Assembly: GCA_963677595.1 (NCBI GenBank)
Contig: OY782041.1
Coordinates: forward strand, 224,001-288,000
Direction of reading: 5' to 3'
Source: Spirochaetia bacterium
GTDB taxonomy: Bacteria > Spirochaetota > Spirochaetia > CAKZLE01
DNA length: 64,000 nucleotides
Made by a program: the position numbers and the translations under genes. How positions within the stretch are numbered: the stretch's first letter is position 1; each line of letters starts with the position of its first letter. Positions 1-29,963 of this stretch are shown here, in pieces. The notes below the pieces were generated by a model that made no database searches, was not told the DNA's origin, and worked only from the letters and a program-made list of their open reading frames with translations.

Positions 1-2
1 AC

Positions 3-476
3 ATCATCCTGACGAAGCTCGGGATGACGCCGATCCAGTGGAAGGCAGCCCCGGTCCCGAACTTCCTGGCCATGATCATGACGAATGTCTGGCTGGGGAT
101 CCCGTTCATGATGGTCATCAGTCTCGGTGCACTGCAGAGCATCTCCTCTGAGTACTACGAGGCAGCTGACATGGATGGAGCGACCGGGTACACGAAACTC
201 TCGAAGATCACCCTGCCCCTGATGAAACCGGTCCTCGCCCCATCGATCATGCTTGGGATCATCTGGACGTTCAACAATTTCAATATTCCATACTTCATCA
301 ACGAGATGAAGCTGGAGAGTTCCGAGATCCTGATCACAGCCCTCTTCCGGGCAGCGTTCAACTTCAACCAGTATGGATTCTCGGCAGCCTTCGCTGTCGT
401 CATCTTCCTCATCCTCTTCGGTCTGACCCTTCTCTACATCCGCTTGACCGGAGCCCTGAAAGGAGTCACCGAATGA
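3..476 (+). CDS. Carbohydrate ABC transporter permease (MalF-like), 5'-truncated by the window edge
   Basis: EAA loop 'YYEAADMDGAT', TM helices; frame is open to the window start; overlaps the next gene by ATGA. Confidence 0.9.
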   Translation: MILTKLGMTPIQWKAAPVPNFLAMIMTNVWLGIPFMMVISLGALQSISSEYYEAADMDGATGYTKLSKITLPLMKPVLAPSIMLGIIWTFNNFNIPYFINEMKLESSEILITALFRAAFNFNQYGFSAAFAVVIFLILFGLTLLYIRLTGALKGVTE

Positions 477-1312
477 ACCCGCTGAGAAAGAGAAACTACG
501 GGAACACCCTGGCACACGTGATCCTGATCCTTGCCTGCCTGATCACCATCTACCCGATCCTGCGCATCGTGACCGTGTCGCTGAGGCCGGGAAGCCGGCT
601 GCTCTCGACCTCGTTACGGATCATCCCGGAGGATGCCTCCTTCCAGAACTATCGGGCGGCACTCACAGAGCATGATTTCTTCCTCTGGATCTGGAACAGC
701 TTCATCGTGACCATCGCGACCGCCTTCATCGGCCTGGTCATCTCCTCTACGTCGGCCTATGCCCTCTCGAGGTGGAAGTTCAAGGGCAGGAATGCCATGC
801 TGATCTTCCTCCTGGCGACCCAGATGATCCCTGCAGCCATGCTGATGGTCCCCCTCTACCTGCTTGCCGCGAAACTGAACCTGATCAACACCTACCGGGG
901 TATCGTCGTGGCCTATTCGGTACAGGCGATACCGTTCAGCATCTGGGTGCTCAAGGGGTATTATGACTCGATCCCGAAGACGCTCGAGGAGGCGGCCATG
1001 ATCGATGGTTCGACACCGATGTACACCTTCTGGAAGATCATCCTTCCCCTAGCTGTACCAGCACTGGCGATCGCCTTCCTCTTCAACTTCATGAACTCCT
1101 GGAATGAGTTCATGCTTGCCAGGATCATGCTGCCGAAGGGCGACATGTTCACCTGGCCGCTGGGCCTCCAGGCACTGCAGGGACAGTTCAACACCAACTG
1201 GGGCATCTACGCCGCATCATCGGTGATGATCTCGATCCCGGTGGTCGCATTGTTCCTCTACTCCTCGAGATGGCTCGTCTCAGGATTGACAATCGGATCG
1301 GTAAAAGGGTAA
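473..1312 (+). CDS. Carbohydrate ABC transporter permease (MalG-like)
   Basis: 'LEEAAMIDG' EAA motif, 'WIWNSFIV', 'WNEFMLA', hydrophobic segments. Confidence 0.93.
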   Translation: MNPLRKRNYGNTLAHVILILACLITIYPILRIVTVSLRPGSRLLSTSLRIIPEDASFQNYRAALTEHDFFLWIWNSFIVTIATAFIGLVISSTSAYALSRWKFKGRNAMLIFLLATQMIPAAMLMVPLYLLAAKLNLINTYRGIVVAYSVQAIPFSIWVLKGYYDSIPKTLEEAAMIDGSTPMYTFWKIILPLAVPALAIAFLFNFMNSWNEFMLARIMLPKGDMFTWPLGLQALQGQFNTNWGIYAASSVMISIPVVALFLYSSRWLVSGLTIGSVKG

Positions 1313-1343
1313 GAATGGATTCTATAGGATAACAGGCACGTTT

Positions 1344-2351
1344 ATGAGTATAACGATCAAGGAAGTAGCAGAATACGCAGGGGTCGCCCCCTCGACGGTG
1401 AGCAGGGTGGTCCACAACAACCCGAAGATCAGCCTCGAGACCCAGGAGAAGGTCAGGGAGGCGATGAAGGTCCTCGGCTACCACCCCAATGCAGCGGCAC
1501 GCTCATTAGCACGGGGAAGGACCCACACACTCGGTCTCATCATCCCCAACTCAGCGGAGGACCTCTTCACAAAACCCTTCTTCATCATGGCGATGCGGGG
1601 GTTGAGCATCGAAGCCCAGAAACGCGGCTACAACATCATGTTCTCCTTCTCCAGCAGCGCCGAGGAGGAGGTCTCCTTCCTGAAACAGTTCATACGGCAG
1701 AACATCGTGGACGGGGTCATCCTCATGACCTCGAGCCGGGATGACAAGTGCATGGCATACCTCGAGGAGAAACGGTGCCCCTACACGGTCATCGGCCGTC
1801 CGGAGAGCAGGTTCGAGCATGCACTCTGGGTCGATAATGACAACTTCCAGGCCATGTACAACCTGGTCTCCAACCTGCTCCAGAAGGGGCTGCGAAGGAT
1901 CGCCCTCCTCGGGGGGCCACAGCAGTTCAGCGTAACACAGAACCGTCTCCGTGGCTACCAGGAGGCGCTGAGGACCCATGGGATCACGATCGATGAGGAC
2001 CTCATCTGCCTCGCCGGGACCTACCGGGAGGTCGAGGGGTACCAGGGGATGAAGACTGTGAGCCAACGGACCTCCTTCGACTCGGTGATCGCGACCGATG
2101 GGTTCATCGCACTCGGAGCCCTGGACTACCTCAAGGAACATGATGCGATGGTCCCCATAGCCGGGTTCAACAACACGACCCGCAGCCAGTGCAGCTCCCC
2201 GCCGCTCACGACGGTCGACATCCAGCCGGAACTGCTCGGCAGGCGTGCGGCAGCCCTCCTGATCGACCACCTCAGCGGGATCGAGCATGCTCCCCGCTAT
2301 GCGATCGTGGACACGATCCTCATCGAGCGGGAATCGACCCTCTCCCTGTAG
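1344..2351 (+). CDS. LacI-family transcriptional regulator (MalR-like)
   Basis: N-terminal 'TIKEVAEYAGVAPSTVSRV' HTH, 'YHPNAAARSL' hinge, sugar-binding domain. Confidence 0.95.
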   Translation: MSITIKEVAEYAGVAPSTVSRVVHNNPKISLETQEKVREAMKVLGYHPNAAARSLARGRTHTLGLIIPNSAEDLFTKPFFIMAMRGLSIEAQKRGYNIMFSFSSSAEEEVSFLKQFIRQNIVDGVILMTSSRDDKCMAYLEEKRCPYTVIGRPESRFEHALWVDNDNFQAMYNLVSNLLQKGLRRIALLGGPQQFSVTQNRLRGYQEALRTHGITIDEDLICLAGTYREVEGYQGMKTVSQRTSFDSVIATDGFIALGALDYLKEHDAMVPIAGFNNTTRSQCSSPPLTTVDIQPELLGRRAAALLIDHLSGIEHAPRYAIVDTILIERESTLSL

Positions 2352-2355
2352 GGGA

Positions 2356-2796
2356 TCACAGCTCCTTTCCGGTGACACGCTCGGCAGCCAGCTTCCAGAC
2401 CCGTACAGCCTCGACAGCTTCAGGAGTGAACTCCCAGGCCTCATCTGAGTAGTGGGCCATGATGCGGGACAACGCTTCCACCTTCCCCGTATAGCCTGTC
2501 ACCTCTGAGACCTGCCCGTACCCGATGACACTCCTTCCGGACATACCCCAGCCGCAGGGAGCTTTATCATGCGGCTGCAGCCTTACATCCTGCTCCATCT
2601 CGAAGCAGACGGTCCCCCCGCCCTCGAGGTAGGCGATCTTCCTGCCCTCACGTGCCGTGTGGAAATAGATATGCGACCCGTCGTACCCGTAGTTCAGCGG
2701 GATGATATACGGGAGGGATCCTGCAGAAACAGCGAGCCGCATGACCTCTGCCCCCCTGATCACCTCATCGATCCGTGCACGATCCCTGATCTCTTT
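2356..2796 (-). pseudogene. Pyridoxamine 5'-phosphate oxidase / NimA-like flavin-binding protein, 3' part, interrupted by IS110
   Basis: 'PYIIPLNYGYDGSHIYFHTAREGRKI...VCFE...SVIGYG' family motifs; no start codon on this side of the IS; joins in frame to 4374-4392. Confidence 0.88.
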
Positions 2797-2809
2797 ATTT
2801 GTCTGTAGA

Positions 2810-2815
2810 TGTCAA
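2810..2815 (-). promoter_or_regulatory. -35 box (TTGACA) of the IS110 circle-junction promoter
   Basis: Joining right end to left end gives TTGACA-17 nt-TAGTAT (-10 box at 4368-4373). Confidence 0.8.
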
Positions 2816-2930
2816 GGGGTATAAACAAGAAAGTTTTGGCAATTCAAATAGACACAATTCTCCGAGACCTTAAAAATAAGGACTTGCGTGGGGAGGTGGT
2901 TAGTGATAGGCTAAAACCGTTAGATTGGCT

Positions 2931-4100
2931 TTAGCTGGTTATTGAGCTCTTATCGGAATTAATCTGCCAGGATCGGGTTCCGACGAGAGCTTCAAGTTTA
3001 TAGTATTGCAGTTTCTTCAACAGATACTGTTCCCCGTCAGGCATCCGGTAGATGTCACCGTTCTTCAGCAGAGCGAATCCGATAGAGAGCATCTTATTAG
3101 CAATGGCAACTGATGCTTTCTGACCAAGCTTCCGTCGGCTCTCAAGACGCTGCCAGTACCGAGTAAGAGAACAATCTCTCCTAAAGCTCTTGATCCCCCA
3201 GGCTCCCTGCATGATGTGCCTCCTGATCGGCATACACCCGTGACGAGAGACCCCGAGCTGCTTATCGACCGTCCCAGATTGATCCTTCTTCGGGATGAGA
3301 CCGATATAGTTCCTCAGTTGGTTAGCAGAAGAGAATCGGTCTCCATTACCGAGGAAGGCAATGAGCGTTACAGCCGTGATGTCTCCGATGCCAGGGATCG
3401 AGAGCCAGGAAAGAGCTTCTCGTGGATGAGCGAGAATGATCTCCTTGAGCTTCTCATGAATACGTTCCATCTGCGACTCCAATGATTCAAGCTCTTCGAG
3501 CAGGAGCCCTGCACTGAATAGAGCTATCTCCTCGGCGAGTAGGGTCTCCACCCAGGCCCGTCGCTTGCGAGGATCCTTCAGATCCGATTTCTTCAGGTCA
3601 GGGAACCCCATTCCCGTGAATACCGCATGAAGCTTGTTGATGACCTTCGTACGATACTGAGCATAGGCGATGTGAAGTTTGACTACTGAGCGCTCAGCAG
3701 ATTCCTGTTCAGTCGGGATGGGAACCAGTACCCAGTTCTCAGGATGGGCATCCCGTGCATACTTAGCCAATTTTGCAGCATCTTGCCGATCTGTCTTGCA
3801 GATCGACTCGAAGATGATATGCAGTTTCATGGGGTTGAGTACATACACGTCTGCTTCGGTGTGCTTCAGCAGATACCGTGCGAGGTTGAAGGAAGATGTC
3901 CCTCCCTCCATAAAGATCGCATCTCCTGCTTTGAACCGTTCAGCGAGTCGCTGACGTCCTTGAGCATTCATCTTCTCGTTGAAGAAGTGATTCTTCATGA
4001 ACCCTTCTTCTGCTAGCAGCATACACCCAACCAGAGTCTTCTTGGAAAGATCCAAGCCGATGATCCTGGTTGCCGTCAATCGTAAAGGTCTGTCTATCAT
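2931..4100 (-). CDS. IS110-family transposase / DEDD bridge recombinase
   Basis: RuvC-like DEDD residues in 'IIGLDLSK', 'FMEGG', 'KTDRQDA'; C-terminal 'SIPGIGDITA...YIGLIPKKDQSGT' with the conserved Ser; GAGGAGG RBS. Confidence 0.96.
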   Translation of the reverse strand: MIDRPLRLTATRIIGLDLSKKTLVGCMLLAEEGFMKNHFFNEKMNAQGRQRLAERFKAGDAIFMEGGTSSFNLARYLLKHTEADVYVLNPMKLHIIFESICKTDRQDAAKLAKYARDAHPENWVLVPIPTEQESAERSVVKLHIAYAQYRTKVINKLHAVFTGMGFPDLKKSDLKDPRKRRAWVETLLAEEIALFSAGLLLEELESLESQMERIHEKLKEIILAHPREALSWLSIPGIGDITAVTLIAFLGNGDRFSSANQLRNYIGLIPKKDQSGTVDKQLGVSRHGCMPIRRHIMQGAWGIKSFRRDCSLTRYWQRLESRRKLGQKASVAIANKMLSIGFALLKNGDIYRMPDGEQYLLKKLQYYKLEALVGTRSWQINSDKSSITS

Positions 4101-4149
4101 GGCAGCCTCCTCAAAATAAAATTAACGGATAGTTGGGAAGCTTTATGAC

Positions 4150-4362
4150 AGGAAGTGCGTAGATGTCCTTCATTTTTATTATTGAGATCATTCCCGGGGA
4201 GAATTCCCCGGGAAGTCTCCAAGTAGTCTTCGATGACCGGTCAGTGTATCTTTCTCATTGAGGTATGTCTGGCAGTCCAGCATCCATCACAATAGATCAT
4301 TACACGATCACCGGTTCCCATTCTCCGTCAAGAATAGGATAGCATCTATGACTTCTCAACTA
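4150..4362 (-). ncRNA. Predicted IS110 bridge/seek RNA in the long upstream non-coding end
   Basis: Lies downstream of the junction promoter. The 5' and 3' ends pair (GAAGT/ACTTC, TAGATG/CATCTA, TCCT/AGGA). Two internal loops carry segments matching the target site and the donor junction. RNA ends are approximate. Confidence 0.8.
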
Positions 4363-4373
4363 CAGTCATACTA

Positions 4374-4392
4374 CTTTCTCTGCTCTTCTCAT
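4374..4392 (-). pseudogene. 5' fragment (MRRAEK) of the IS110-interrupted flavin-binding protein gene
   Basis: ATG AGA AGA GCA GAG AAA G| continues as |AG ATC AGG GAT at 2792; TATAAT lies 7 nt upstream of the ATG. Confidence 0.85.
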
Positions 4393-4666
4393 ATGCATGA
4401 TTATACCTGCGGCGTAGTTCTTTTCAACTGCAGGCGTACATGATCTCCATAAACCCTCCGATATTCATCAACATAATTAGTTGCATTGCTATTTATTCTG
4501 GGCTAGAATAAATTATATAGAATAACAAAAAAAGGCAGATCAACTATGGTGTATGTTTCTTTGTGTCAGACAATACTGCTTCGTATCCTTTTTTCGATTC
4601 GTCAACAACCCTTCAGCGACCGGTGTACCACGACACGCATACAGCCACCCCTAGAGGGGGTGCTGC

Positions 4667-5491
4667 ATGGGTAAGCCTGTCCACAAATACATCAGCCTCC
4701 TCTTCGGGATCGCCGGCATCCTCAACTTCCTCTCCACCTTCTTCGGGACGGTGACCGACTGCCCCTTCTGCAGCGGCTATGAGCTCAGGTGGTGGAGCTA
4801 TCCCCTCCTCGGAGTCGGGATCTACTTCCTGTGGACCTACTTCTGCACACGTGAACGGGTAGTCCTGAGCCTGCAGGATAAGACCGTGACAGTCAACATG
4901 TCCGTGATCATCCAGTATTCACAGTTCGGGTTCATCTACCTGATCTCGATCTTCGTGGCGTTCCACCCGCTCCACAACAACTTCACGATGGAACTGCTCT
5001 TCCTCGCCCTGCTGCTCGGGCTGCGGTACCAGCTGATCAAGATCCGGGGGAGCATCTTCATGGGGGTCACCACCTCCATTGCCTTTGAGTTTGCTGCCTT
5101 CCAGAACGGCACACCCCTCGACGGGCTGTATGTGCTGATCTTCGCAGGAGCCATCATCTTCGTCCTGCTGCTCATCCACATGGACTTCCTCAAGATCGAC
5201 TCAAGCATGCATGAGCGGATCCTCCATGTGGAGACGCGCCTGAACCAGTACGAAAAGGAAACCCTCGACCCGGGGGACTTCCCGTTCACCCCCAGGGAAC
5301 TGGACGTCCTGAAGGCCCTCTGCCTGACGCACGGCTCCAACAGTGATATAGCTAGCGGTCTCGGGATCAAGGAACAGACGGTCAAGGGGCACCTGAAGAA
5401 CATCTTCGACAAGGCAGGGGTCGATGACCGACACCAGCTCGTCGACCTCTTCAGGCATGCCTTCATCATGGATGACGACCTTGACCATTAA
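4667..5491 (+). CDS. Membrane-anchored LuxR-type HTH regulator (paralog 1)
   Basis: Multiple N-terminal TM segments; C-terminal 'FTPRELDVL...SNSDIASGLGIKEQTVKGHLKNIFDKAGV'. Confidence 0.85.
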   Translation: MGKPVHKYISLLFGIAGILNFLSTFFGTVTDCPFCSGYELRWWSYPLLGVGIYFLWTYFCTRERVVLSLQDKTVTVNMSVIIQYSQFGFIYLISIFVAFHPLHNNFTMELLFLALLLGLRYQLIKIRGSIFMGVTTSIAFEFAAFQNGTPLDGLYVLIFAGAIIFVLLLIHMDFLKIDSSMHERILHVETRLNQYEKETLDPGDFPFTPRELDVLKALCLTHGSNSDIASGLGIKEQTVKGHLKNIFDKAGVDDRHQLVDLFRHAFIMDDDLDH

Positions 5492-5548
5492 GGGAATCAA
5501 ACGTTCCGAAGCTGCAGATACGTGCTATACTGACAGGAGGAGTAAGAC

Positions 5549-6376
5549 ATGGAAGATGATCGATTCAAGACAGTCAGCCTGATCTACGGTATCATCGGTA
5601 TGCTCACCTGCATCATGCAGGTGGTCACGGTCATGACAGAGACGGACCTTGGCGATGAACACACACTGGCCTGGTGGTGGTACATGATCCTCATTATCGG
5701 GATCTTCTTCCTCTGGATGGCCTTCAAGAAACGGGGCACCTACTCCATCACCCTGTTGGGGAAGACCATCAAGATCAACCTCTTCCGCATCACGAAGGTT
5801 CTGCATTTCGTCGTGATGTATATCTTCTCCGTAGTGGAGATCAACGCTGACCATACGAGCCAGTACGGCATGATGATGCTGTTCATCTCCCTCATGATGG
5901 GGATCAAGTACCGGCTGATCCGAAAGCGGGGGATCATCATCTGCCTGATCATCTTCGCAGCCTCGCTCGAGACGGGTGCAGTCCAGGCAGGGTATCCCTT
6001 CCGGGCAGTCTACACCTTCATCTTCGCAGGGTTCTACTTCGGTATCCTGAGCGTCCTCTATACCGATGAACTGCGGAAATACTTCACCCTGGCAAAGAAC
6101 TTCCATGAGAAACTCCTATCGGTAGAGGAGAAGCTGAAGAAGTATGAGGGTCAGACCTTCGACCCGGAGGCCTTCCAGTTCACTCCCAGAGAGAGGGAGA
6201 TCCTGAGTATCCTCTGCACCACGCACGGCACCAACCAGGAGATCTCAGACCAGCTTGGGATCAAGGTCCAGACCGTGAAGACCCATATAAAGAACATCTT
6301 CGACAAGGCAGGGGTCGATGACCGGCATCAGTTGATCGATCTCTTCAAGCATTCCTACATCCAGGATGAGACGTAA
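5549..6376 (+). CDS. Membrane-anchored LuxR-type HTH regulator (paralog 2)
   Basis: Same architecture; 'FTPREREIL...TNQEISDQLGIKVQTVKTHIKNIFDKAGV'; AGGAGG RBS. Confidence 0.85.
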   Translation: MEDDRFKTVSLIYGIIGMLTCIMQVVTVMTETDLGDEHTLAWWWYMILIIGIFFLWMAFKKRGTYSITLLGKTIKINLFRITKVLHFVVMYIFSVVEINADHTSQYGMMMLFISLMMGIKYRLIRKRGIIICLIIFAASLETGAVQAGYPFRAVYTFIFAGFYFGILSVLYTDELRKYFTLAKNFHEKLLSVEEKLKKYEGQTFDPEAFQFTPREREILSILCTTHGTNQEISDQLGIKVQTVKTHIKNIFDKAGVDDRHQLIDLFKHSYIQDET

Positions 6377-6382
6377 GGAGGA

Positions 6383-7645
6383 TCAGTAAACTAACTCCTG
6401 GCATCGGAGGAAGAACCGCTCATCCCCGAAATTCCCTGACTTGAGAGCCAGGCTGACATCACGGTCCACCGCCCGGATCCAGGGGACTCCCGGGGCGATC
6501 TGCTGGCCGATATAGAAACTCCTGACCCCTAAGACCTGTACGACCTTCCCGGAGGTCTCCCCGCCCCCGATGATAAGCTTCTTCACTCCCCCGTCGACCA
6601 GCCTGCTCGCGACAGCCGAGAACAGCAGTTCGATCCGCTCCCCGAGCCCCTCGCCATAGGCCTCCCGGTTACACTCGATGACATCCGGCAGGGCTGTTGA
6701 ATAGATCATCGGGGCATGCGCATCGTCGGCATGGTCCAGCAGCCAGGTGACAAGCTCATCTTCATACGAAGGGTTATGGATTACTGCTTCAGGATCGACG
6801 AATCTCGAGGCGGCGAGCTGCCGGTAGAAGTCTACCTGGCGGTTCGTCATGACCGAACATGACCCGGAGATGATGGCCGAAGGCCCTCTGGACGGTCTCC
6901 AGGAGTCATGGACGGTAGGCGTATCTCCATGTTCGCTTGACCACGCCCTGACCAGCCCCCCGATGAGGGCTGACCCGCCGGTGATGAGCACCTCATCTCT
7001 GCAGGCTGAGCCGATCGTATCGATATCGTCATCAGTCAGGCAGTCCGGGATGATATACCGGATACCTTCTGAGCGCAGCTTCATGATATCAGTCTTCACA
7101 GCCTCCACGCCGTCCCAGACATGCTCGATGAAGATATTCCCCGACTTCCCCCTCGACTGGGCATCCATGATGCGTGAGAGGGAGGGATCCCGCATCGGGG
7201 TCACAGGATGGTCCTTCATCCCCGAATCACTCAGGAGCTCATTCCCGGCAAAGAGGTATCCCTTATAGACGGTGCGGCCGTTGACCGGGAAAGCCGGGCA
7301 GATCACGGCATGGTCTGCCTCCAGCGCATCAAGCAGGGCATCAGTCACCGGTCCGATGTTCCCCTTCGGCGTGCTGTCGAAGGTCGAGCATACCTTGAAG
7401 TAGAACCGCGAGCAGCCCTGTCCCTGCAGCCAGGCAAGGGCTGCCAGGGACTGGTTGATCGCTTCTCCTGCGGGGCAGGAGCGGCTCTTCAGGCTGACCA
7501 CATAGGCATCAGCCTCTGCCGCAAGATCCCCATCCGGAACCCCGGCAGTCTGTATCGTCTGCAGCCCGCAGCCTGCAAGAATCCCCGCGATATCGGTCGC
7601 TCCCGTGAAATCATCTGCGATGACCCCGATCCTGTGTTTCATCAT
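6383..7645 (-). CDS. otnK: Four-carbon acid sugar kinase (3-oxo-tetronate kinase, DUF1537 family)
   Basis: 'IGVIADDFTGATD', 'FKVCSTFDSTPKGNIGPV', 'GGETSG', 'LALKSGNFG'; start moved to the ATG after AGGAAGGTGGAG. Confidence 0.85.
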   Translation of the reverse strand: MMKHRIGVIADDFTGATDIAGILAGCGLQTIQTAGVPDGDLAAEADAYVVSLKSRSCPAGEAINQSLAALAWLQGQGCSRFYFKVCSTFDSTPKGNIGPVTDALLDALEADHAVICPAFPVNGRTVYKGYLFAGNELLSDSGMKDHPVTPMRDPSLSRIMDAQSRGKSGNIFIEHVWDGVEAVKTDIMKLRSEGIRYIIPDCLTDDDIDTIGSACRDEVLITGGSALIGGLVRAWSSEHGDTPTVHDSWRPSRGPSAIISGSCSVMTNRQVDFYRQLAASRFVDPEAVIHNPSYEDELVTWLLDHADDAHAPMIYSTALPDVIECNREAYGEGLGERIELLFSAVASRLVDGGVKKLIIGGGETSGKVVQVLGVRSFYIGQQIAPGVPWIRAVDRDVSLALKSGNFGDERFFLRCQELVY

Positions 7646-7750
7646 CTCCACCTTCCTGGACCCCATTATGCCCGGTGATTGCGGGAACGGCAAGACGATC
7701 TCACACCTCAATCGTTCAGATTCTCCACCTGTCATGGTATAATCACTGGT

Positions 7751-8128
7751 ATGAGACGAATCGGAATCTTTGCGATCATCATAGGTACGGGTATCATCCT
7801 GCTCTGGGGGTTCCTGCTTGCCGCAGGTGGAGTTCCCGAGATCAGGACCGCCCCGGTGAGTATCACCTTCCACCTGATAGCGGAACTCCTGATGGGGACA
7901 GCATCCCTGACCAGCGGGATCCTGATCCTGCAGGGCATACCAGCAGGCACCTATACCTATCTCATCACCAGCGGGATGATCATCTACTCGGTCATAAACT
8001 CTTCAGGCTATTACGGGGATACCGGGGAGTGGGTGATGGTGGCTATGTTCATGGTAATCCTCATCTCCACCCTGGTCACTGATACCATGCTGCTGAATCG
8101 CATCTTTCAGGCTGGGAAGGACCGATAA
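7751..8128 (+). CDS. Hypothetical 4-TM membrane protein
   Basis: Four hydrophobic segments; TGnTATAAT 7 nt before ATG 7751. Confidence 0.7.
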   Translation: MRRIGIFAIIIGTGIILLWGFLLAAGGVPEIRTAPVSITFHLIAELLMGTASLTSGILILQGIPAGTYTYLITSGMIIYSVINSSGYYGDTGEWVMVAMFMVILISTLVTDTMLLNRIFQAGKDR

Positions 8129-8152
8129 AAAAACCTCATCCGAAGATGAGGT
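8127..8152 (-). terminator. Rho-independent terminator after tRNA-Phe
   Basis: ACCTCATC-TTCG-GATGAGGT followed by a T run on the minus strand. Confidence 0.85.
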
Positions 8153-8153
8153 C

Positions 8154-8226
8154 TGCCGCCGAACAGAATTGAACTGTTGACACGTGGATTTTCAGTCCAC
8201 TGCTCTACCGACTGAGCTACAGCGGC
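8154..8226 (-). tRNA. tRNA-Phe (GAA), CCA not encoded
   Basis: GCCGCTG TA GCTC AGTCGGTA GAGC A GTGGA CTGAAAA TCCAC GTGTC AACAG TTCAATT CTGTT CGGCGGC A cloverleaf. Confidence 0.97.
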
Positions 8227-8277
8227 ATGTCGTTGTCTTGACGACAAGAGAATGTATATAATTTGAGCGGGAAATTG

Positions 8278-9024
8278 TCAACCCCTCTGGGAGAATTTCT
8301 CGTAATAGTGCATCTCCAGCTCCCATAATCGCCTGTTTCCGGCACTCCGTTCAGCCCTGTCTACCGGAACGGGGATCGTCCCCCGTATTGATGCAGGCCT
8401 GCCGGAGAGGATGATCACCTCATCCGAGAGGAGCAGGGCCTCCTGGATGTCATGGGTGACCAGCGCGGTCATCCTCGGCGTCCTCTGCCAGATGGCCTGG
8501 TAGGCTGCGATCAGGTTGAACCGAAGATCAGCATCCAGGGACTGGAAGGGTTCATCCATGAGGATGAGCTGTGAGGGATAGGCGAATGCACGGGCGATCG
8601 CGACCCGCTGCCGCATACCCCCTGAGAGCTCTCGCGGGTACAGGTACTCGAACCCCTTCAGTCCGACGAGTTCCACGAACTGCAGGACCCGTTCCTTCCG
8701 CTCTGCCGCATCCGTGATATGGTTGCGCAGCACGAGCTCGATGTTCTCAGACACATTCCGCCACGGCAGCAGCCGGGGTTCCTGGAAGAGGTAGCTCAGG
8801 CTCGCGACATTCGTCGTGGAGCTCATCGGCACACCTGAGATGGTCCCTGAGTCAACCTGCTCCATGCCGGCGAGCATGTGGAGGAGCGTGGTCTTCCCGC
8901 AGCCTGAAGGCCCGACGAGGGCAACGATCTGCCCGTCCCCGATGGTCAGGGAGAGGTCATGAAAGACCTCGAGTGACCCCTGAGCTGTCTCATATGATTT
9001 CGACACCCCCTCGATCCTGATCAT
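8278..9024 (-). CDS. NitT/TauT-family ABC transporter ATP-binding protein
   Basis: Walker A GPSGCGKT, 'LSGGMRQR', 'LMDEPF', 'VTHD'. Confidence 0.93.
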   Translation of the reverse strand: MIRIEGVSKSYETAQGSLEVFHDLSLTIGDGQIVALVGPSGCGKTTLLHMLAGMEQVDSGTISGVPMSSTTNVASLSYLFQEPRLLPWRNVSENIELVLRNHITDAAERKERVLQFVELVGLKGFEYLYPRELSGGMRQRVAIARAFAYPSQLILMDEPFQSLDADLRFNLIAAYQAIWQRTPRMTALVTHDIQEALLLSDEVIILSGRPASIRGTIPVPVDRAERSAGNRRLWELEMHYYEKFSQRG

Positions 9025-9785
9025 ACTTCACCCCCGCGCCGTTTTCTCATGATCCTGACCCCGCCGTCAAAGAGCAGGTCGCTCAATGCGTTGAGCAGTA
9101 TCGCGACAATCGTCCACCCCATCACCGTTGCCGTCTCCAGGTTGATCTGGGCATACTGCATGGCAGAGCCCACCCCGTGCTTCGGGACGGTCAGGACCTC
9201 CGCGGCGATGACCACCTTCCAGGTCATCCCCAGGGCGCCTTTCGCCCCGGCGATGATGAACGGCAGCATCGAGGGTATCGTGATATGAAACAGCGACTGC
9301 CATCGGTCCAGTCCATAGACCCTGCCCATCTGGATGAGCTTCGCATCCCGTTTCTCCATGCCGACGAGCAGGTTCTGGTAGAGGACCGGGAAGCCCATGA
9401 GGAAGGCAGAGAAGACGGGGACCGTACCGGTCTTGAACCAGATGAAGGCCAGCAGGATGATCGCCATCACGGGAGTCGCCTTGATGACGGAGAGCACCGG
9501 GCGCATGACGGCGCTCACGGTCCGGCTCTGGCCGCCGAGCAGCCCGAGGACGAGCCCTGAAGCCATGATGATGAGGAAGCTGCGCAGCGCACGGGCCACA
9601 GTCGCGCCGATCGCGACCCAGGAGTCGGGGTTTGAGAAGAACGAGAGGAACTCTCCCAGTACCGAGACCGGTTCCGGGAGAATGATCGGTATGCCCATTA
9701 CGACGGCAGCAGCCTGCCAGATCCCCAGCAGGATGACTACCGTGAGGGCTGTTACCAGACTAGTTCGCCATATAGAATGCTTCAT
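9021..9785 (-). CDS. NitT/TauT-family ABC transporter permease
   Basis: 'ILPEP', 'WKVVIAAEVL', TM helices. Confidence 0.9.
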   Translation of the reverse strand: MKHSIWRTSLVTALTVVILLGIWQAAAVVMGIPIILPEPVSVLGEFLSFFSNPDSWVAIGATVARALRSFLIIMASGLVLGLLGGQSRTVSAVMRPVLSVIKATPVMAIILLAFIWFKTGTVPVFSAFLMGFPVLYQNLLVGMEKRDAKLIQMGRVYGLDRWQSLFHITIPSMLPFIIAGAKGALGMTWKVVIAAEVLTVPKHGVGSAMQYAQINLETATVMGWTIVAILLNALSDLLFDGGVRIMRKRRGGEV

Positions 9786-10845
9786 CCGGGAGTGACCCTC
9801 CTATAGAAGCAGGTGCATACTCTTTCAGGACTTCAAGGTAGGCCTCTATCGAAGCCCTTGCGTCTGCTGCGTCGATATAGACGAGGTTGCAGTTCGGGAT
9901 CGCCGGCTGGGCAAGAGCAGCAGTGAGGATCTCATGCTTCTCGATGAGTGCAGCTGCATCAGCAGGATTGGCATTCACCCAGTCGATCGAGTTCTCCACT
10001 GCCATCCTGATCACCCGTACGACCTCAGGGTGTTCTGAAGCGAACGCACCCCTGATCAGCAGTGCTGTCATCGGATAGGTCGAGGTCCCGGTGATCGATG
10101 ACCACTCCTCCTGGAAGTCCAGGACTCGCCGTACTGCCTCACTCTTGGACTCAGCCATCGTTGCGAAGGGTTCCGGGAGTACGGCGGTCGTCACCTTGCC
10201 GGCGATCAGCATCTGTGTCAGCTGTGCCGCGACGTTCAGGGAGAAGTCGAACTCGACATCCTCACCGACGGCAAGGCCGTTCTTCTCGAGGACGAACTTC
10301 GGCACATACTCAGGTGTGGATCCCGCTCCGGGGATGTTCACGCTCTTACCGGAGAGGCTTGCCGCCTGGTCGGTAACTGCCGGATCAGAACTCATCAGGT
10401 AGAGCATCCCCTCCCCGGTGACTGCCGCCAGCTTCACGTCGATCCCCTTGTTGTAGATCGAGGAGGCTGCATTGACCGGCATCGCTACCACATCCAGCTC
10501 CCCCGAGGCAAGCCGTGCGATCGCCTCAGTCGGCGAAGGCAGCACCTGGGATTCTACCGAGATGCCGTCCACCAGGTCCGGTCCCTCCTCGATCAGCTTC
10601 ACGTATCCGAAGCCTGTCGGTCCCTTGAAGACCGCGAGATTGACCTGTACCGTCCCTGCAGGACTGGCTGCTGCCTCAGGCGCGGCCGGTGCCTCCACGA
10701 CTGCGGGCTCCTCCGCAGGGGCTGCCGGTGCCTCGACTGCGGGGGCCGGCTCTTCCTTGGCTTCCTGGGCACCCCTGGCAAAAAGGGTTCCGGCAGAGAC
10801 CAGCATCAGTACCATAAGTACTGACAGTATCTTAGCTATTCTCAT
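9760..10845 (-). CDS. NitT/TauT-family ABC substrate-binding protein
   Basis: Signal peptide ('LFARGAQE'), Ala/Pro/Glu linker, 'KGPTGFG', 'AVLPEPF', 'IPNCNL', 'GGSLPDEAFY'; start at ATG after GAGGAG. Confidence 0.88.
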   Translation of the reverse strand: MRIAKILSVLMVLMLVSAGTLFARGAQEAKEEPAPAVEAPAAPAEEPAVVEAPAAPEAAASPAGTVQVNLAVFKGPTGFGYVKLIEEGPDLVDGISVESQVLPSPTEAIARLASGELDVVAMPVNAASSIYNKGIDVKLAAVTGEGMLYLMSSDPAVTDQAASLSGKSVNIPGAGSTPEYVPKFVLEKNGLAVGEDVEFDFSLNVAAQLTQMLIAGKVTTAVLPEPFATMAESKSEAVRRVLDFQEEWSSITGTSTYPMTALLIRGAFASEHPEVVRVIRMAVENSIDWVNANPADAAALIEKHEILTAALAQPAIPNCNLVYIDAADARASIEAYLEVLKEYAPASIGGSLPDEAFYMAN

Positions 10846-10864
10846 AGTGTTCTCCTCAATTCTC

Positions 10865-12121
10865 TCAATCGGTGATGACGACCCGGAAGTACCGTTTCTT
10901 ACCGGCCCTGAGAAGCAGTTCCCCGTCCTCGGAGCTGGACGCATCGATCACAGCGTCTATGGCGGTGATCTTGACGTCATTGACGACAGCACCGCCCTGC
11001 TGGACGAGCCGTCGTGCATCACTCTTCGTCTTGCAGAGTTCGGTCCTGGCGAACAGGTCCATGACATTGATCCCGGCAGCGAGTTCTGCCCTCGGGATCT
11101 CCACAGACGGGATTGCCTCCTTGTCGAGGGACGCTCCCCCGCCCTGGGTCGAGAAGGCCGCCCTGGCAGCCTCCAGTGCCTTGTCAGCCTCTTCCTTCCC
11201 ATGGATGATCTTCGTCTGCTCGTATGCAAGGATCTCCTTGGCTTTGTTGACCTCCTGGTCCTTCAGCTTGGCAAGTTCATTGATCTCCTCGAGGGGGAGG
11301 AAGGTGAACATCTTCAGGAACTTCACGACATCGGCATCGGCGACATTCCGCCAGTACTGGAAGAAGTCATAGGGGCTGAAGAGCTCCGCAGAGAGGAACA
11401 CTGCCCCCTTCTCGGTCTTGCCCATCTTCTTGCCGTCCGACCTGGTCACCAGCGGGAAGGTCAGTCCGTAGACCTCCTCACGCTCGCAGCGCCGGGTAAG
11501 CTCGACGCCTGCCACGATGTTCCCCCACTGGTCGTCCCCGCCCATCTGGAGGCGGCACCCCTCGTCCCTGAAGAGGGTGAGGAAGTCGAAAGACTGCAGC
11601 AGCTGGTAGTTGAACTCGATGAAGGAGAGCCCCTTCTCCAGCCGCTGCTTATAGGACTCGAAGGTGAGCATCTTGTTCACGGAGAAGTGCTTCCCGATGT
11701 CACGGAGGAACTCGATGTAGTTGAGTCCCCCGAGCCAGTCATAGTTGTTGAGCATGACGGCCTTGCCTTCTGCCCGGTCAGGGTCGAAGTCGACGACGGT
11801 GCCGAGCTGTACCTTGATTGCCTCCGAGTTGCTGCGGATCTGCTCGATGGTGAGCATCTTCCTCATCTCGGTCTTCCCCGAGGGGTCGCCGATCATCGAG
11901 GTGCCGCCGCCCACGAGGGCGATCGGGTTGTGCCCTGCCTCCTGCATGTGGTGCATGGCGAAGAACGGCACCATATGCCCGATATGGAGGCTGTTCCCGG
12001 TCGGGTCTACCCCGACATAGAACTTGACGGGGCCCGCCTCCATCAGCTTGTCCAGTGCCTCGATATCGGTGCACTGTTTTATGAAACCACGGTCCTGAAG
12101 GACCTGTAATGCTTTGTTCAT
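10865..12121 (-). CDS. tyrS: Tyrosine--tRNA ligase
   Basis: 'DPTGNSLHIGH', 'QMGGDDQWGNI', 'KMGKT', C-terminal S4 domain. Confidence 0.98.
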   Translation of the reverse strand: MNKALQVLQDRGFIKQCTDIEALDKLMEAGPVKFYVGVDPTGNSLHIGHMVPFFAMHHMQEAGHNPIALVGGGTSMIGDPSGKTEMRKMLTIEQIRSNSEAIKVQLGTVVDFDPDRAEGKAVMLNNYDWLGGLNYIEFLRDIGKHFSVNKMLTFESYKQRLEKGLSFIEFNYQLLQSFDFLTLFRDEGCRLQMGGDDQWGNIVAGVELTRRCEREEVYGLTFPLVTRSDGKKMGKTEKGAVFLSAELFSPYDFFQYWRNVADADVVKFLKMFTFLPLEEINELAKLKDQEVNKAKEILAYEQTKIIHGKEEADKALEAARAAFSTQGGGASLDKEAIPSVEIPRAELAAGINVMDLFARTELCKTKSDARRLVQQGGAVVNDVKITAIDAVIDASSSEDGELLLRAGKKRYFRVVITD

Positions 12122-28802: not shown

Positions 28803-29705
28803 TCAATCAGCCAGGGTATCCTGGAGTTCCCTGATGGCATCTTCACTCAATCCTGTGATATCAGCGATATCAGGGGGAGACATCCCCTTAGCCAACATTC
28901 GCTTTGCAATCGCTTTCTTTTCTTCCTCTACGATCGCCTTCTCCCGAGCCAGGGCATCCTGTACTGCCAGCCTTCGCTGTTCCTTGTGGTACCTGCTCAC
29001 ATCCTCATCGCTTATGTGTATCATCTGATCTACCGCCTTGTCGAAGATCGCGTTCCGTTGACAGAGTTCCTCGAGCTGTGTCTCATCCTCCAGCCTGAAG
29101 AATGTCGTCCACTGATCCCTCAGGCTCTCGGGATCATCATGGTCCATACGCTTAAGCTCCACGAAGACCATCTCCATGAGATCCGTGAACTCTTCTTTCG
29201 TCTCCCGGTCATGGAAGGTCATGTGCCGTATATAGGACCTGGTCGTATCCGGCTTCTCTTCGTAGTTCTCTCCGTCCTTATCTTCTTCCGTCTCTATCAG
29301 ATTATAGCACAGAAAATTGAGAGTTATAGCCTTGCCGAAATCGGCAGGCCGCTTTCGGCAGTCTCCCTTCTTGATCTGGCTTGAGTAGAGGCGGGCAAGG
29401 TAATGCAGGCTGCGGGGCATGATGTCAAACTCATTACGGACCTGGACCTCGACGTTGATATGCTCGTTGTTCGAGGTGAGGACCCGCAGGTCGAGGCGGA
29501 AGAGCTTGTCATCGGGGTATTCCCGCTCTATTTCCGTGGTCATGATCGTGATGTCCTCCGGGCTCTCCGCGGAGATGTCGAGGTAGGCGGTGAGCAGGGA
29601 GAGCAGCAGGTCCTTGTTCTCCTCCTTGGTGAAGATCGCCTTGAAGACGATGTCACTGGTAAGCGGCAGCAAGGTGCTGTTCCCGTACTTGATCTCTTTA
29701 AACAT
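28803..29705 (-). CDS. Rpn-family recombination-promoting nuclease (PD-(D/E)XK nuclease / putative transposase)
   Basis: 'SDIVFKAIF', 'RLDLRV...INVEVQ', 'RSLHYLARLYSSQIKKG', 'FVELKR', C-terminal 'IAKRMLAKGM..DIADITGLS'. Confidence 0.92.
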   Translation of the reverse strand: MFKEIKYGNSTLLPLTSDIVFKAIFTKEENKDLLLSLLTAYLDISAESPEDITIMTTEIEREYPDDKLFRLDLRVLTSNNEHINVEVQVRNEFDIMPRSLHYLARLYSSQIKKGDCRKRPADFGKAITLNFLCYNLIETEEDKDGENYEEKPDTTRSYIRHMTFHDRETKEEFTDLMEMVFVELKRMDHDDPESLRDQWTTFFRLEDETQLEELCQRNAIFDKAVDQMIHISDEDVSRYHKEQRRLAVQDALAREKAIVEEEKKAIAKRMLAKGMSPPDIADITGLSEDAIRELQDTLAD

Positions 29706-29790
29706 GCGGGTTCCTCCTGTGTTCGTATAGCTACTACAAACAGGATTTAGTTAGATTTGATTTAAAAAATGCTGCGATCGATGAAAAAAA

Positions 29791-29963
29791 TATGACTGTA
29801 GTTGAGAAGTCACAGATGCTATCCTATTCTTGACGGAGAATGGGAACCGGTGATCGGATAATACTCCTTTGTGACGGATGCTGAACTTTCAGACATACCT
29901 CAATCAAAAAGATACACTGCCCGATCATTGTAGACTACTTGGAGACTTCCCGGGGAATTCTCC
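29791..29963 (+). repeat. Orphan copy of the IS110 left end / bridge RNA, no recombinase attached
   Basis: Gapless 156/173-nt match to the reverse complement of 4198-4370. Confidence 0.92.

Follow-up and report, generated by a model that had tools for sequence, protein, structure and literature searches.

In the window, the 64,000-nucleotide stretch of Spirochaetia bacterium DNA analysed here, we interpret the segment upstream of an IS110-family recombinase gene, with high confidence, as the left end of an intact insertion sequence, whose four guides match the insertion site and the element's own ends, and which likely encodes a bridge RNA steering the recombinase. The element's ends and its AA core were located, no target sequence is duplicated beyond this core, three of the four guides covary with the sequences that they match, and it is established in which order the guides stand with respect to the element.

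The element spans 1,579 bp (2796..4374, minus strand) between two copies of its core. Its ends were placed by comparing the five full copies present in the genome, which are 97–100% identical (two of them, L001 and L002, 100%) and diverge at 4374 and 2796, AA abutting each end. The genome also holds one truncated left end and one distant relative, with 46% protein identity. The element sits at an AA core behind the sixth codon of a PNPOx-like gene (PF12900), of which the first six codons occupy 4392-4375 and the main part 2356..2793 (minus strand); removal of the element in silico yields a single stop-free PNPOx-like frame of 151 codons. The left target flank of 4 nt with the left AA copy (4375..4380) and the right AA copy with the right target flank of 7 nt (2787..2795, both minus strand) were delimited by copy comparison and by the empty site. 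This empty allele was found in two public runs, X1 at depth 28.7 and X3 at depth 2.8, in contigs where the flanks are joined and 1,581 bp are missing, equal to the element and one copy of the core. There is therefore no target duplication beyond the core, as is typical of the IS110 family. An AA/TT core had been proposed in the preliminary description, and these contigs fix it together with the position of the element ends.

Run X1 contains filled and empty alleles at the window site and likewise at the L002 site, plus one insertion absent from the window genome, which indicates recent movement. At L002 (1504-3087), the X1 empty allele reads AC and both junctions of the filled copy read AA, reflecting either strain polymorphism or conversion of a mismatched core at insertion; TA was found at the left junction in L046/L051.

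Genome searches with the single protein gave few members, 2 of 6 at the order level and 7 of 401 at the class level, a plasmid search with IS5075 returned IS5075/IS4321 only, and none of 76 candidates from viral contigs was confirmed. The distant member with 46% protein identity (L018, G000:C1:2615293-2616691) has a homologous leader, and its right end is not recognisable downstream of the gene. The truncated left end (29783-29963 of the window, plus strand) lacks a recombinase; what remains of it are the 5' hairpin, one half of the donor hairpin and a target loop whose guides differ. It lies a short way upstream of a gene encoding an Rpn-family nuclease (28803-29705, minus strand; TIGR01784). 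At 4667-5491 and 5549-6376 (plus strand) lie two paralogous genes in tandem, each for a membrane protein that has a LuxR-type helix-turn-helix domain at its C terminus.

The recombinase (389 aa; 2931..4100, minus strand) carries PF01548 and PF02371, and scores above the NCBIfam cut-off of NF033542 for IS110 RNA-guided transposases. In an alignment to IS621 and ISCro4, residues D17, E65, D104, D107 and S275 match the IS621 catalytic positions, and they are conserved in the alignment of homologues; the protein combines the DEDD RuvC-like domain and the Tnp domain with catalytic serine of the broad IS110 family. It is 27% identical to the IS621 recombinase over 261 aa, and among the 11 named elements tested, that of ISLin1 scores best (28%, E 3e-47). 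In a tree of 26 rows, with these 11 named elements as the only references and one row (L110, a mis-called frame on a very long branch) carrying no information, the spirochaete family forms its own clade with support 100/99, and its grouping with ISLin1 is moderately supported (88/93). The family falls outside the clade of IS5075, ISYen1, ISShdy1 and ISKpn2 (100/100), taken as IS1111-side from published element listings, and outside the pair of IS621 and IS1000A, which we take to be of the IS110 group, in a tree that is unresolved at its base.

The left-end segment likely encodes a bridge RNA for this adjacent recombinase. The predicted RNA, of about 205–210 nt, would extend over 4150..4357 (minus strand), its 5' end being placed by a predicted junction promoter and its 3' end by a stem joining the two ends. 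For the strand 4345-4140 the folding energy is -70.9 kcal/mol (z -5.6), and none of 200 shuffles was as stable. An Rfam search gave nothing over the leader, and elsewhere in 1-12000 only a tRNA and one hit at E 0.91; a tRNA gene lies at 8154-8226 (minus strand). We gathered 140 loci, duplicates included, from genomes and metagenomes, 139 of them with a recombinase match. A homologous leader is present upstream of the recombinase in 114 of these 139 and downstream in none. At 14 loci the leader had no hit though the 5' part of the gene was present, six of these being distant relatives at 30–36%; most of the others are truncated at a contig end or miss the start of the gene.

Two hairpins of this RNA stand out in the homologues. 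The 5' hairpin with a conserved GACG-type loop (4316..4339, minus strand) is an RNAalifold consensus helix with compensatory changes, and the perfect hairpin within the donor arm (4191..4214, minus strand) is both in the fold and a covarying helix. RNAalifold recovers these two only, as the MAFFT alignment used (A2) is poor in variable stems. Pairing of the RNA 5' and 3' ends, which had been claimed beforehand, is borne out: the stem of 4355-4341 with 4168-4152 is in the minimum-energy fold (14 pairs, probability 0.73–0.98) and covaries in homologues, own ends giving -11.5 kcal/mol versus -8.2 for swapped ones over 39 distinct pairs. In this fold, the end stem would put the donor guides inside a multiloop. 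A three-way junction formed by 5' GATG/CATC pairing was found in 18 of 45 single folds, versus 30 of 45 for the end pairing, which covaries, and was not preferred.

The segments on which the preliminary description had built its two arms were all found at the stated coordinates on the minus strand: CGGTGATCG (4313-4305), CGGTCATCG (4239-4231), TGATCTATT (4299-4291) and GAGAAAGA (4256-4249) in the target arm, ACTACTT (4227-4221), AATAAA (4180-4175) and the hairpin (4214-4191) in the donor arm. It had closed the target loop by pairing CGGTGATCG with CGGTCATCG. This stem does better than shuffles, but it is one of two near-isoenergetic registers (-75.6 kcal/mol versus -76.7 for the alternative), and single-sequence folding favours the other one (32 of 45 homologues, versus 9 of 45). 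On alignment A2 both registers exceed shuffles, with 86.9% and 90.7% of cells paired. Both are kept in much of the family (4315-4231 of the window, minus strand), and a conformational switch is possible. Some subfamilies (L023, L053, L007) have an extra hairpin of 30–40 nt between the left inverted repeat and the 5' stem of the RNA.

In the target loop, the 5' target guide TGATCTATT (4291..4299, minus strand) is complementary to the right flank at 8 of 9 positions, and covaries with it in the family (z 6.7 in register, z 9.1 with a 1-nt shift). The 3' target guide, 4 nt followed by the AA core (4251..4256, minus strand), has the sense of the left flank (6/6) and would pair with the bottom strand. 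This guide had been drawn over the whole of GAGAAAGA; the four nucleotides and the core (4256-4251) hold, but the last two bases are predicted to serve in the handshake, and in copy L005 they do not change with the target. At the window insertion site, 10 of the 11 non-core positions match the guides, which is equalled by 2.4e-5 of the 375,851 AA sites of the genome. With the core fixed, own guides match at 10, 3, 9, 8 and 8 of 11 positions at the five sites; genomic AA sites that match at 10 to 8 positions represent 2.4e-5 to 2.5e-3 of the total. The 3/11 belongs to copy L002 read in the fixed register; its long arm reaches 8/9 with a one-base shift. As the L002 empty allele in X1 retains the extra base, the slip is in the target. 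That the extra A might be an assembly error or a product of insertion was ruled out, since X1 contigs show it beside the element and in the empty allele. In copy L005 both target guides have changed: they match their own flanks at 8/11, and crossed pairings give 3/11 in either direction. L005 is a natural reprogramming within one genome.

Guides were then compared with insertion sites across the spirochaete clade. Both ends were called for 71 loci; 6 further ones (6/77) did not pass the inverted-repeat filter. Without duplicates there were 55; 3 whose flanks were truncated at a contig end and 1 site present twice were discarded, which left 51 insertions. Between the 3' target guide and the left flank, 3.75 of 4 positions agree, versus 2.07 for shuffled partners, and the guide is perfect (4/4) in 40 of the 51; the four positions past it give only 1.12 versus 0.89. 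For the 5' target guide and the right flank, agreement in fixed register is 3.43 of 7 positions (shuffled 2.39), or about half, and on distal positions 3.22 of 5 versus 2.13 if a one-base shift is allowed, the unshifted register alone being best in 20 of 51. The picture was the same with one insertion per guide pair (n=45). From these matches, the short target arm appears strict, and the long arm seems to tolerate mismatches and 1-nt slips. As in a bridge RNA, the guides of the target loop read opposite strands and covary with insertion sites. A preference of the family for terminator-like hairpins as targets was considered: strong folding (z below -2) was seen in 13 of 45 right flanks, in 6 of 45 on the left and in 5 of 45 distant windows, a difference that is not significant in a paired test (p 0.43).

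Such complementarity could be mimicked, in principle, by a transposase preferring A-tracts next to an A/T-rich leader, with no RNA guidance at all. The flanks are A-rich (AAAA on the left in 13 of 51 insertions, AA at the start of the right flank in 25 of 51), and L002 matches poorly in the fixed register. A-rich guides do hold less information, and because the insertions are related by descent, p-values overstate. However, the shuffle test allows for composition, which shuffling across elements preserves (z 15–16); among guide positions other than A, 53 of 61 match their own flank; and the reprogrammed copy L005 switches guides and flanks together. Covariation and L005 largely refute this explanation, to which we give almost no weight. 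The guides thus track insertion sites in homologues, the check that the preliminary description had called for, and its broader proposal, a divergent recombinase–RNA pair with predictable guide registers, is upheld by the covariation in 51 insertions, by the reprogrammed copy and by the empty sites.

In the donor arm, the 5' donor guide (4221..4229, minus strand) complements the top strand of the left end, over the -10 box, at 8 of 9 positions. It tracks the left end in the family (5.2 versus 3.8 of 7, 19 distinct combinations, z 6.6), also over 7 classes of -10 box (z 4.0). Its core-facing bases vary: a TT-G ending had been put forward for the 5' guides, and as a family rule it fails for the donor guide, TT being found in 10 of 51 only, in the best register. 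The 3' donor guide (4175..4180, minus strand) has the same sense as the terminal bases of the right end with the core (6/6). It is nearly invariant, changing jointly with the right end in L076, L127 and L052 only, and is therefore barely tested by covariation. A predicted handshake dinucleotide follows the core in the target loop (4249..4250, minus strand), a role assigned by analogy with IS621 (PMC11208158). Its first base equals the first base of the left end at a frequency of 0.73, versus 0.32 when shuffled (22 distinct combinations).

The two ends carry sub-terminal inverted repeats (4360..4368 on the left, 2800..2808 on the right, both minus strand) that match at 8 of 9 positions. Over the family, own repeats match at 8.2 of 9 positions versus 4.7 for swapped ones (29 combinations), and the 51 elements passing the end filter have 0–2 mismatches over 11 nt. 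Since the ends had been searched with anchors in the right end, the -10 box and the inverted repeats, promoter and repeat counts are conditional on this filter. The covarying, IS1111-like repeats raise the question of what reads the ends. The protein itself might do so at the repeats, a processed target-loop RNA of about 80–100 nt being the working form and the donor arm an accessory, as with seekRNAs; in ISEc11, short seekRNAs are described as the abundant and sufficient form (PMC11187229). It would fit this proposal that the donor guide matches at only 4–6 of 7 positions and varies at its core-facing bases. Yet the 5' donor guide changes with the left end across the -10 box classes, and the compensatory changes that maintain the donor hairpin and the 5'/3' end stem argue for a full-length RNA with two loops. 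We consider the short form unlikely, though of the alternatives it deserves the most attention, and retain the two-loop bridge RNA as the preferred reading.

A promoter for this RNA is predicted at the junction of joined ends. The right end carries a -35 box TTGACA (2810..2815) and the left end a -10 box TAGTAT (4368..4373, both minus strand), which fall 17 bp apart once the ends, as fixed by the empty site, are joined through the core. In the 51 elements the -35 box is TTGAC followed by A, T or C, this box having served as a search anchor. No circle junction was found among the joints in public-run contigs at the window and L002 sites, contigs dropping rare forms. Among the public runs listed as containing the sequence, none was of RNA, a result given weight in neither direction. 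As the element's own promoter exists only in joined ends, this copy could be silent, or its leader could act in cis as mRNA leader or DNA, guide RNA coming only from circles of other copies. Against this, a strong sigma-70-like host promoter (11/12, a consensus match only; 4400..4427, minus strand) is directed into the left end and could be a source of read-through RNA, and in IS621 read-through is reported to support excision (PMC13626964). In addition, L001 and L002 are identical and insertion sites are polymorphic in X1, which shows that the family moved recently. A silent or cis-acting leader is, in our view, highly improbable, and the bridge RNA remains our interpretation.

With respect to the element, the guides run opposite to those of IS621, in an IS1111-like order, though the RNA is upstream. 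Pairings in the IS621 order are at chance in the 51 insertions (z -0.5 and 0.4). Read by eye, an IS621 control locus has the order opposite to that of the window element, and ISLin1, the G101 element, L025 and L095 have the same order as the window element. In IS621, the 5' guide pairs with the bottom strand, at the left target, and the 3' guide with the top strand (PMC11208160). The top-first order is described for ISEc11, ISKpn4, ISPa11 and ISPst6, IS1111 members whose RNA lies downstream, and the opposite one for ISEc21 of the IS110 group (PMC11187229). The preliminary description had called the RNA IS621-type, which applies to the two bipartite loops and the upstream position, but not to the guide order, the donor loop set in a multiloop or the sub-terminal repeats.

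Like IS621 and ISCro4 (IS622; PMC11208160, PMC11208158), the element has its RNA in a long left end upstream of the recombinase, a 5' hairpin followed by a target loop and then a donor loop, a predicted junction promoter, and DEDD and serine residues. It also shares with them a long guide of 7 nt plus a 2-nt core, a short second guide, and handshake bases after the core. In the IS621 frame its second core base is T, the opposite strand reading 7 nt + TT + 4 nt, and IS621 is reported to require T at this position. Unlike both, it has the reversed order, an AA/TT core where theirs is CT, sub-terminal repeats of about 9 bp where theirs are 2–3 bp or absent, and donor guides in a predicted multiloop. 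From IS621 it is further separated by the protein (27% over 261 aa) and by the RNA: a profile of the family RNA finds 9 of 9 sister-locus leaders (E 2e-8 to 0.013), including that of ISLin1 (E 7e-6), but misses that of IS621, with none of 10 loci of other named elements below E 0.6.

IS1111 members are defined by sub-terminal repeats with a longer left extension, and a few of them, such as ISMtsp17, have an upstream region (PMC11187229). As in their seekRNA elements, the top-strand match lies 5' of the bottom-strand match, and the inverted repeats are sub-terminal and asymmetric, with the longer extension at the left end and a length within the 7–17 bp of that group; as in many IS1111 orthologues (PMC11208160), the donor guides would lie in a multiloop. 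In contrast to IS1111, the RNA is upstream of the transposase rather than downstream, the repeats are about 9 bp long with extensions of 6 + 4 nt around a 2-nt core (usually 11–13 bp, with 7 or 6 + 3, in IS1111), and the protein falls outside the clade of the four named IS1111-side proteins, given 11 named references and a tree unresolved at its base.

The closest likeness is to ISLin1 of Leptospira interrogans (loci L141 and L142; ISfinder name as annotated), which has a homologous upstream RNA, the same guide order, sub-terminal repeats and a split promoter, but differs by a GA core, a very short right end and other targets. Between its two loci, the 3' guide and the left flank change together. 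ISLin1 (L141:340-440 and 1780-1890) lies within short tandem repeats that each regenerate the target, with the right end of another copy immediately upstream. The G101 sister element (L033-L036, L155, L159, L161-L164) has inserted repeatedly, in at least 7 copies, into a short MITE-like element with inverted repeats, at 7 bp inward from its end, and the guides match that end.

Based on IS621 work, the element would be copied or cut out as a circle (PMC11208158, PMC13626964); whether exit is by cutting or by copying is disputed for IS621 and CazIS110-1. End joining would then build the sigma-70 promoter with 17-bp spacing, and the RNA of about 205 nt transcribed from it would be bound, as in IS621, by a recombinase tetramer. 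A site of about 13 bp (4 nt + AA + 7 nt) would be opened by the target loop and the circle junction by the donor loop, and strands would be exchanged at the core by the DEDD site with serine 275. The geometry would be that of IS621, 7 nt, a 2-nt core and a short arm, laid on the element in the opposite direction. With this reversed direction the long donor arm corresponds to the left end, not the right one, and the strand cut first would be the bottom strand of the element.

The literature already describes bridge and seek RNAs in IS110-family elements, natural reprogramming and guides in either order (PMC11208160, PMC11187229). The mechanism is thus known, and it is the mixed layout that may be undescribed. 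We found no paper on the spirochaete clade or on a guide RNA of ISLin1, papers naming ISLin1 having been judged by title and start of abstract. The layout was not found in passages of PMC11208160, PMC11187229, PMC11208158, PMC13626964 and PMC13604230, nor in those of 10.1101/2025.05.14.653916, 10.1101/2025.10.25.684509, 10.64898/2026.08.14.744561, 10.64898/2026.03.19.712850 and 10.64898/2026.08.31.748434; it may already be drawn in published figures or supplements. A recent preprint models 32,190 bridge RNAs with 86 models, many of them unlike IS621 (10.64898/2026.10.21.760802). That the clade and ISLin1 represent an undescribed third IS110 guide layout, with upstream RNA, IS1111 order, long repeats and a protein outside the core IS1111 clade, is a tentative proposal, which we hold to be possible rather than probable.

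Bridge recombinases are under development as programmable tools for insertion, excision and inversion, and the well-characterised ones, IS621, ISCro4 and ISPpu10, are described with a CT core. The present family offers a distant (27%) AA/TT-core system, of which the four guide registers, the ends and a predicted promoter were mapped from natural variation. If the proposed layout is right, it would add AA-core recombinases by the dozen, reprogrammed in nature, whose short arm is strict and whose long arm tolerates slips. Strand polarity and RNA position would then be separable, against the two-way split of the founding papers, and the clade may represent a surviving step between the designs of IS621 and IS1111. 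The family also cautions against deducing guide design rules from the position of the RNA, as an upstream RNA can read the strands in IS1111 order. A move of the RNA from one end to the other has been put forward by Durrant et al. (PMC11208160); the clade bears on the divergence of the IS621 and IS1111 groups, having IS1111 polarity and repeats without such a move.
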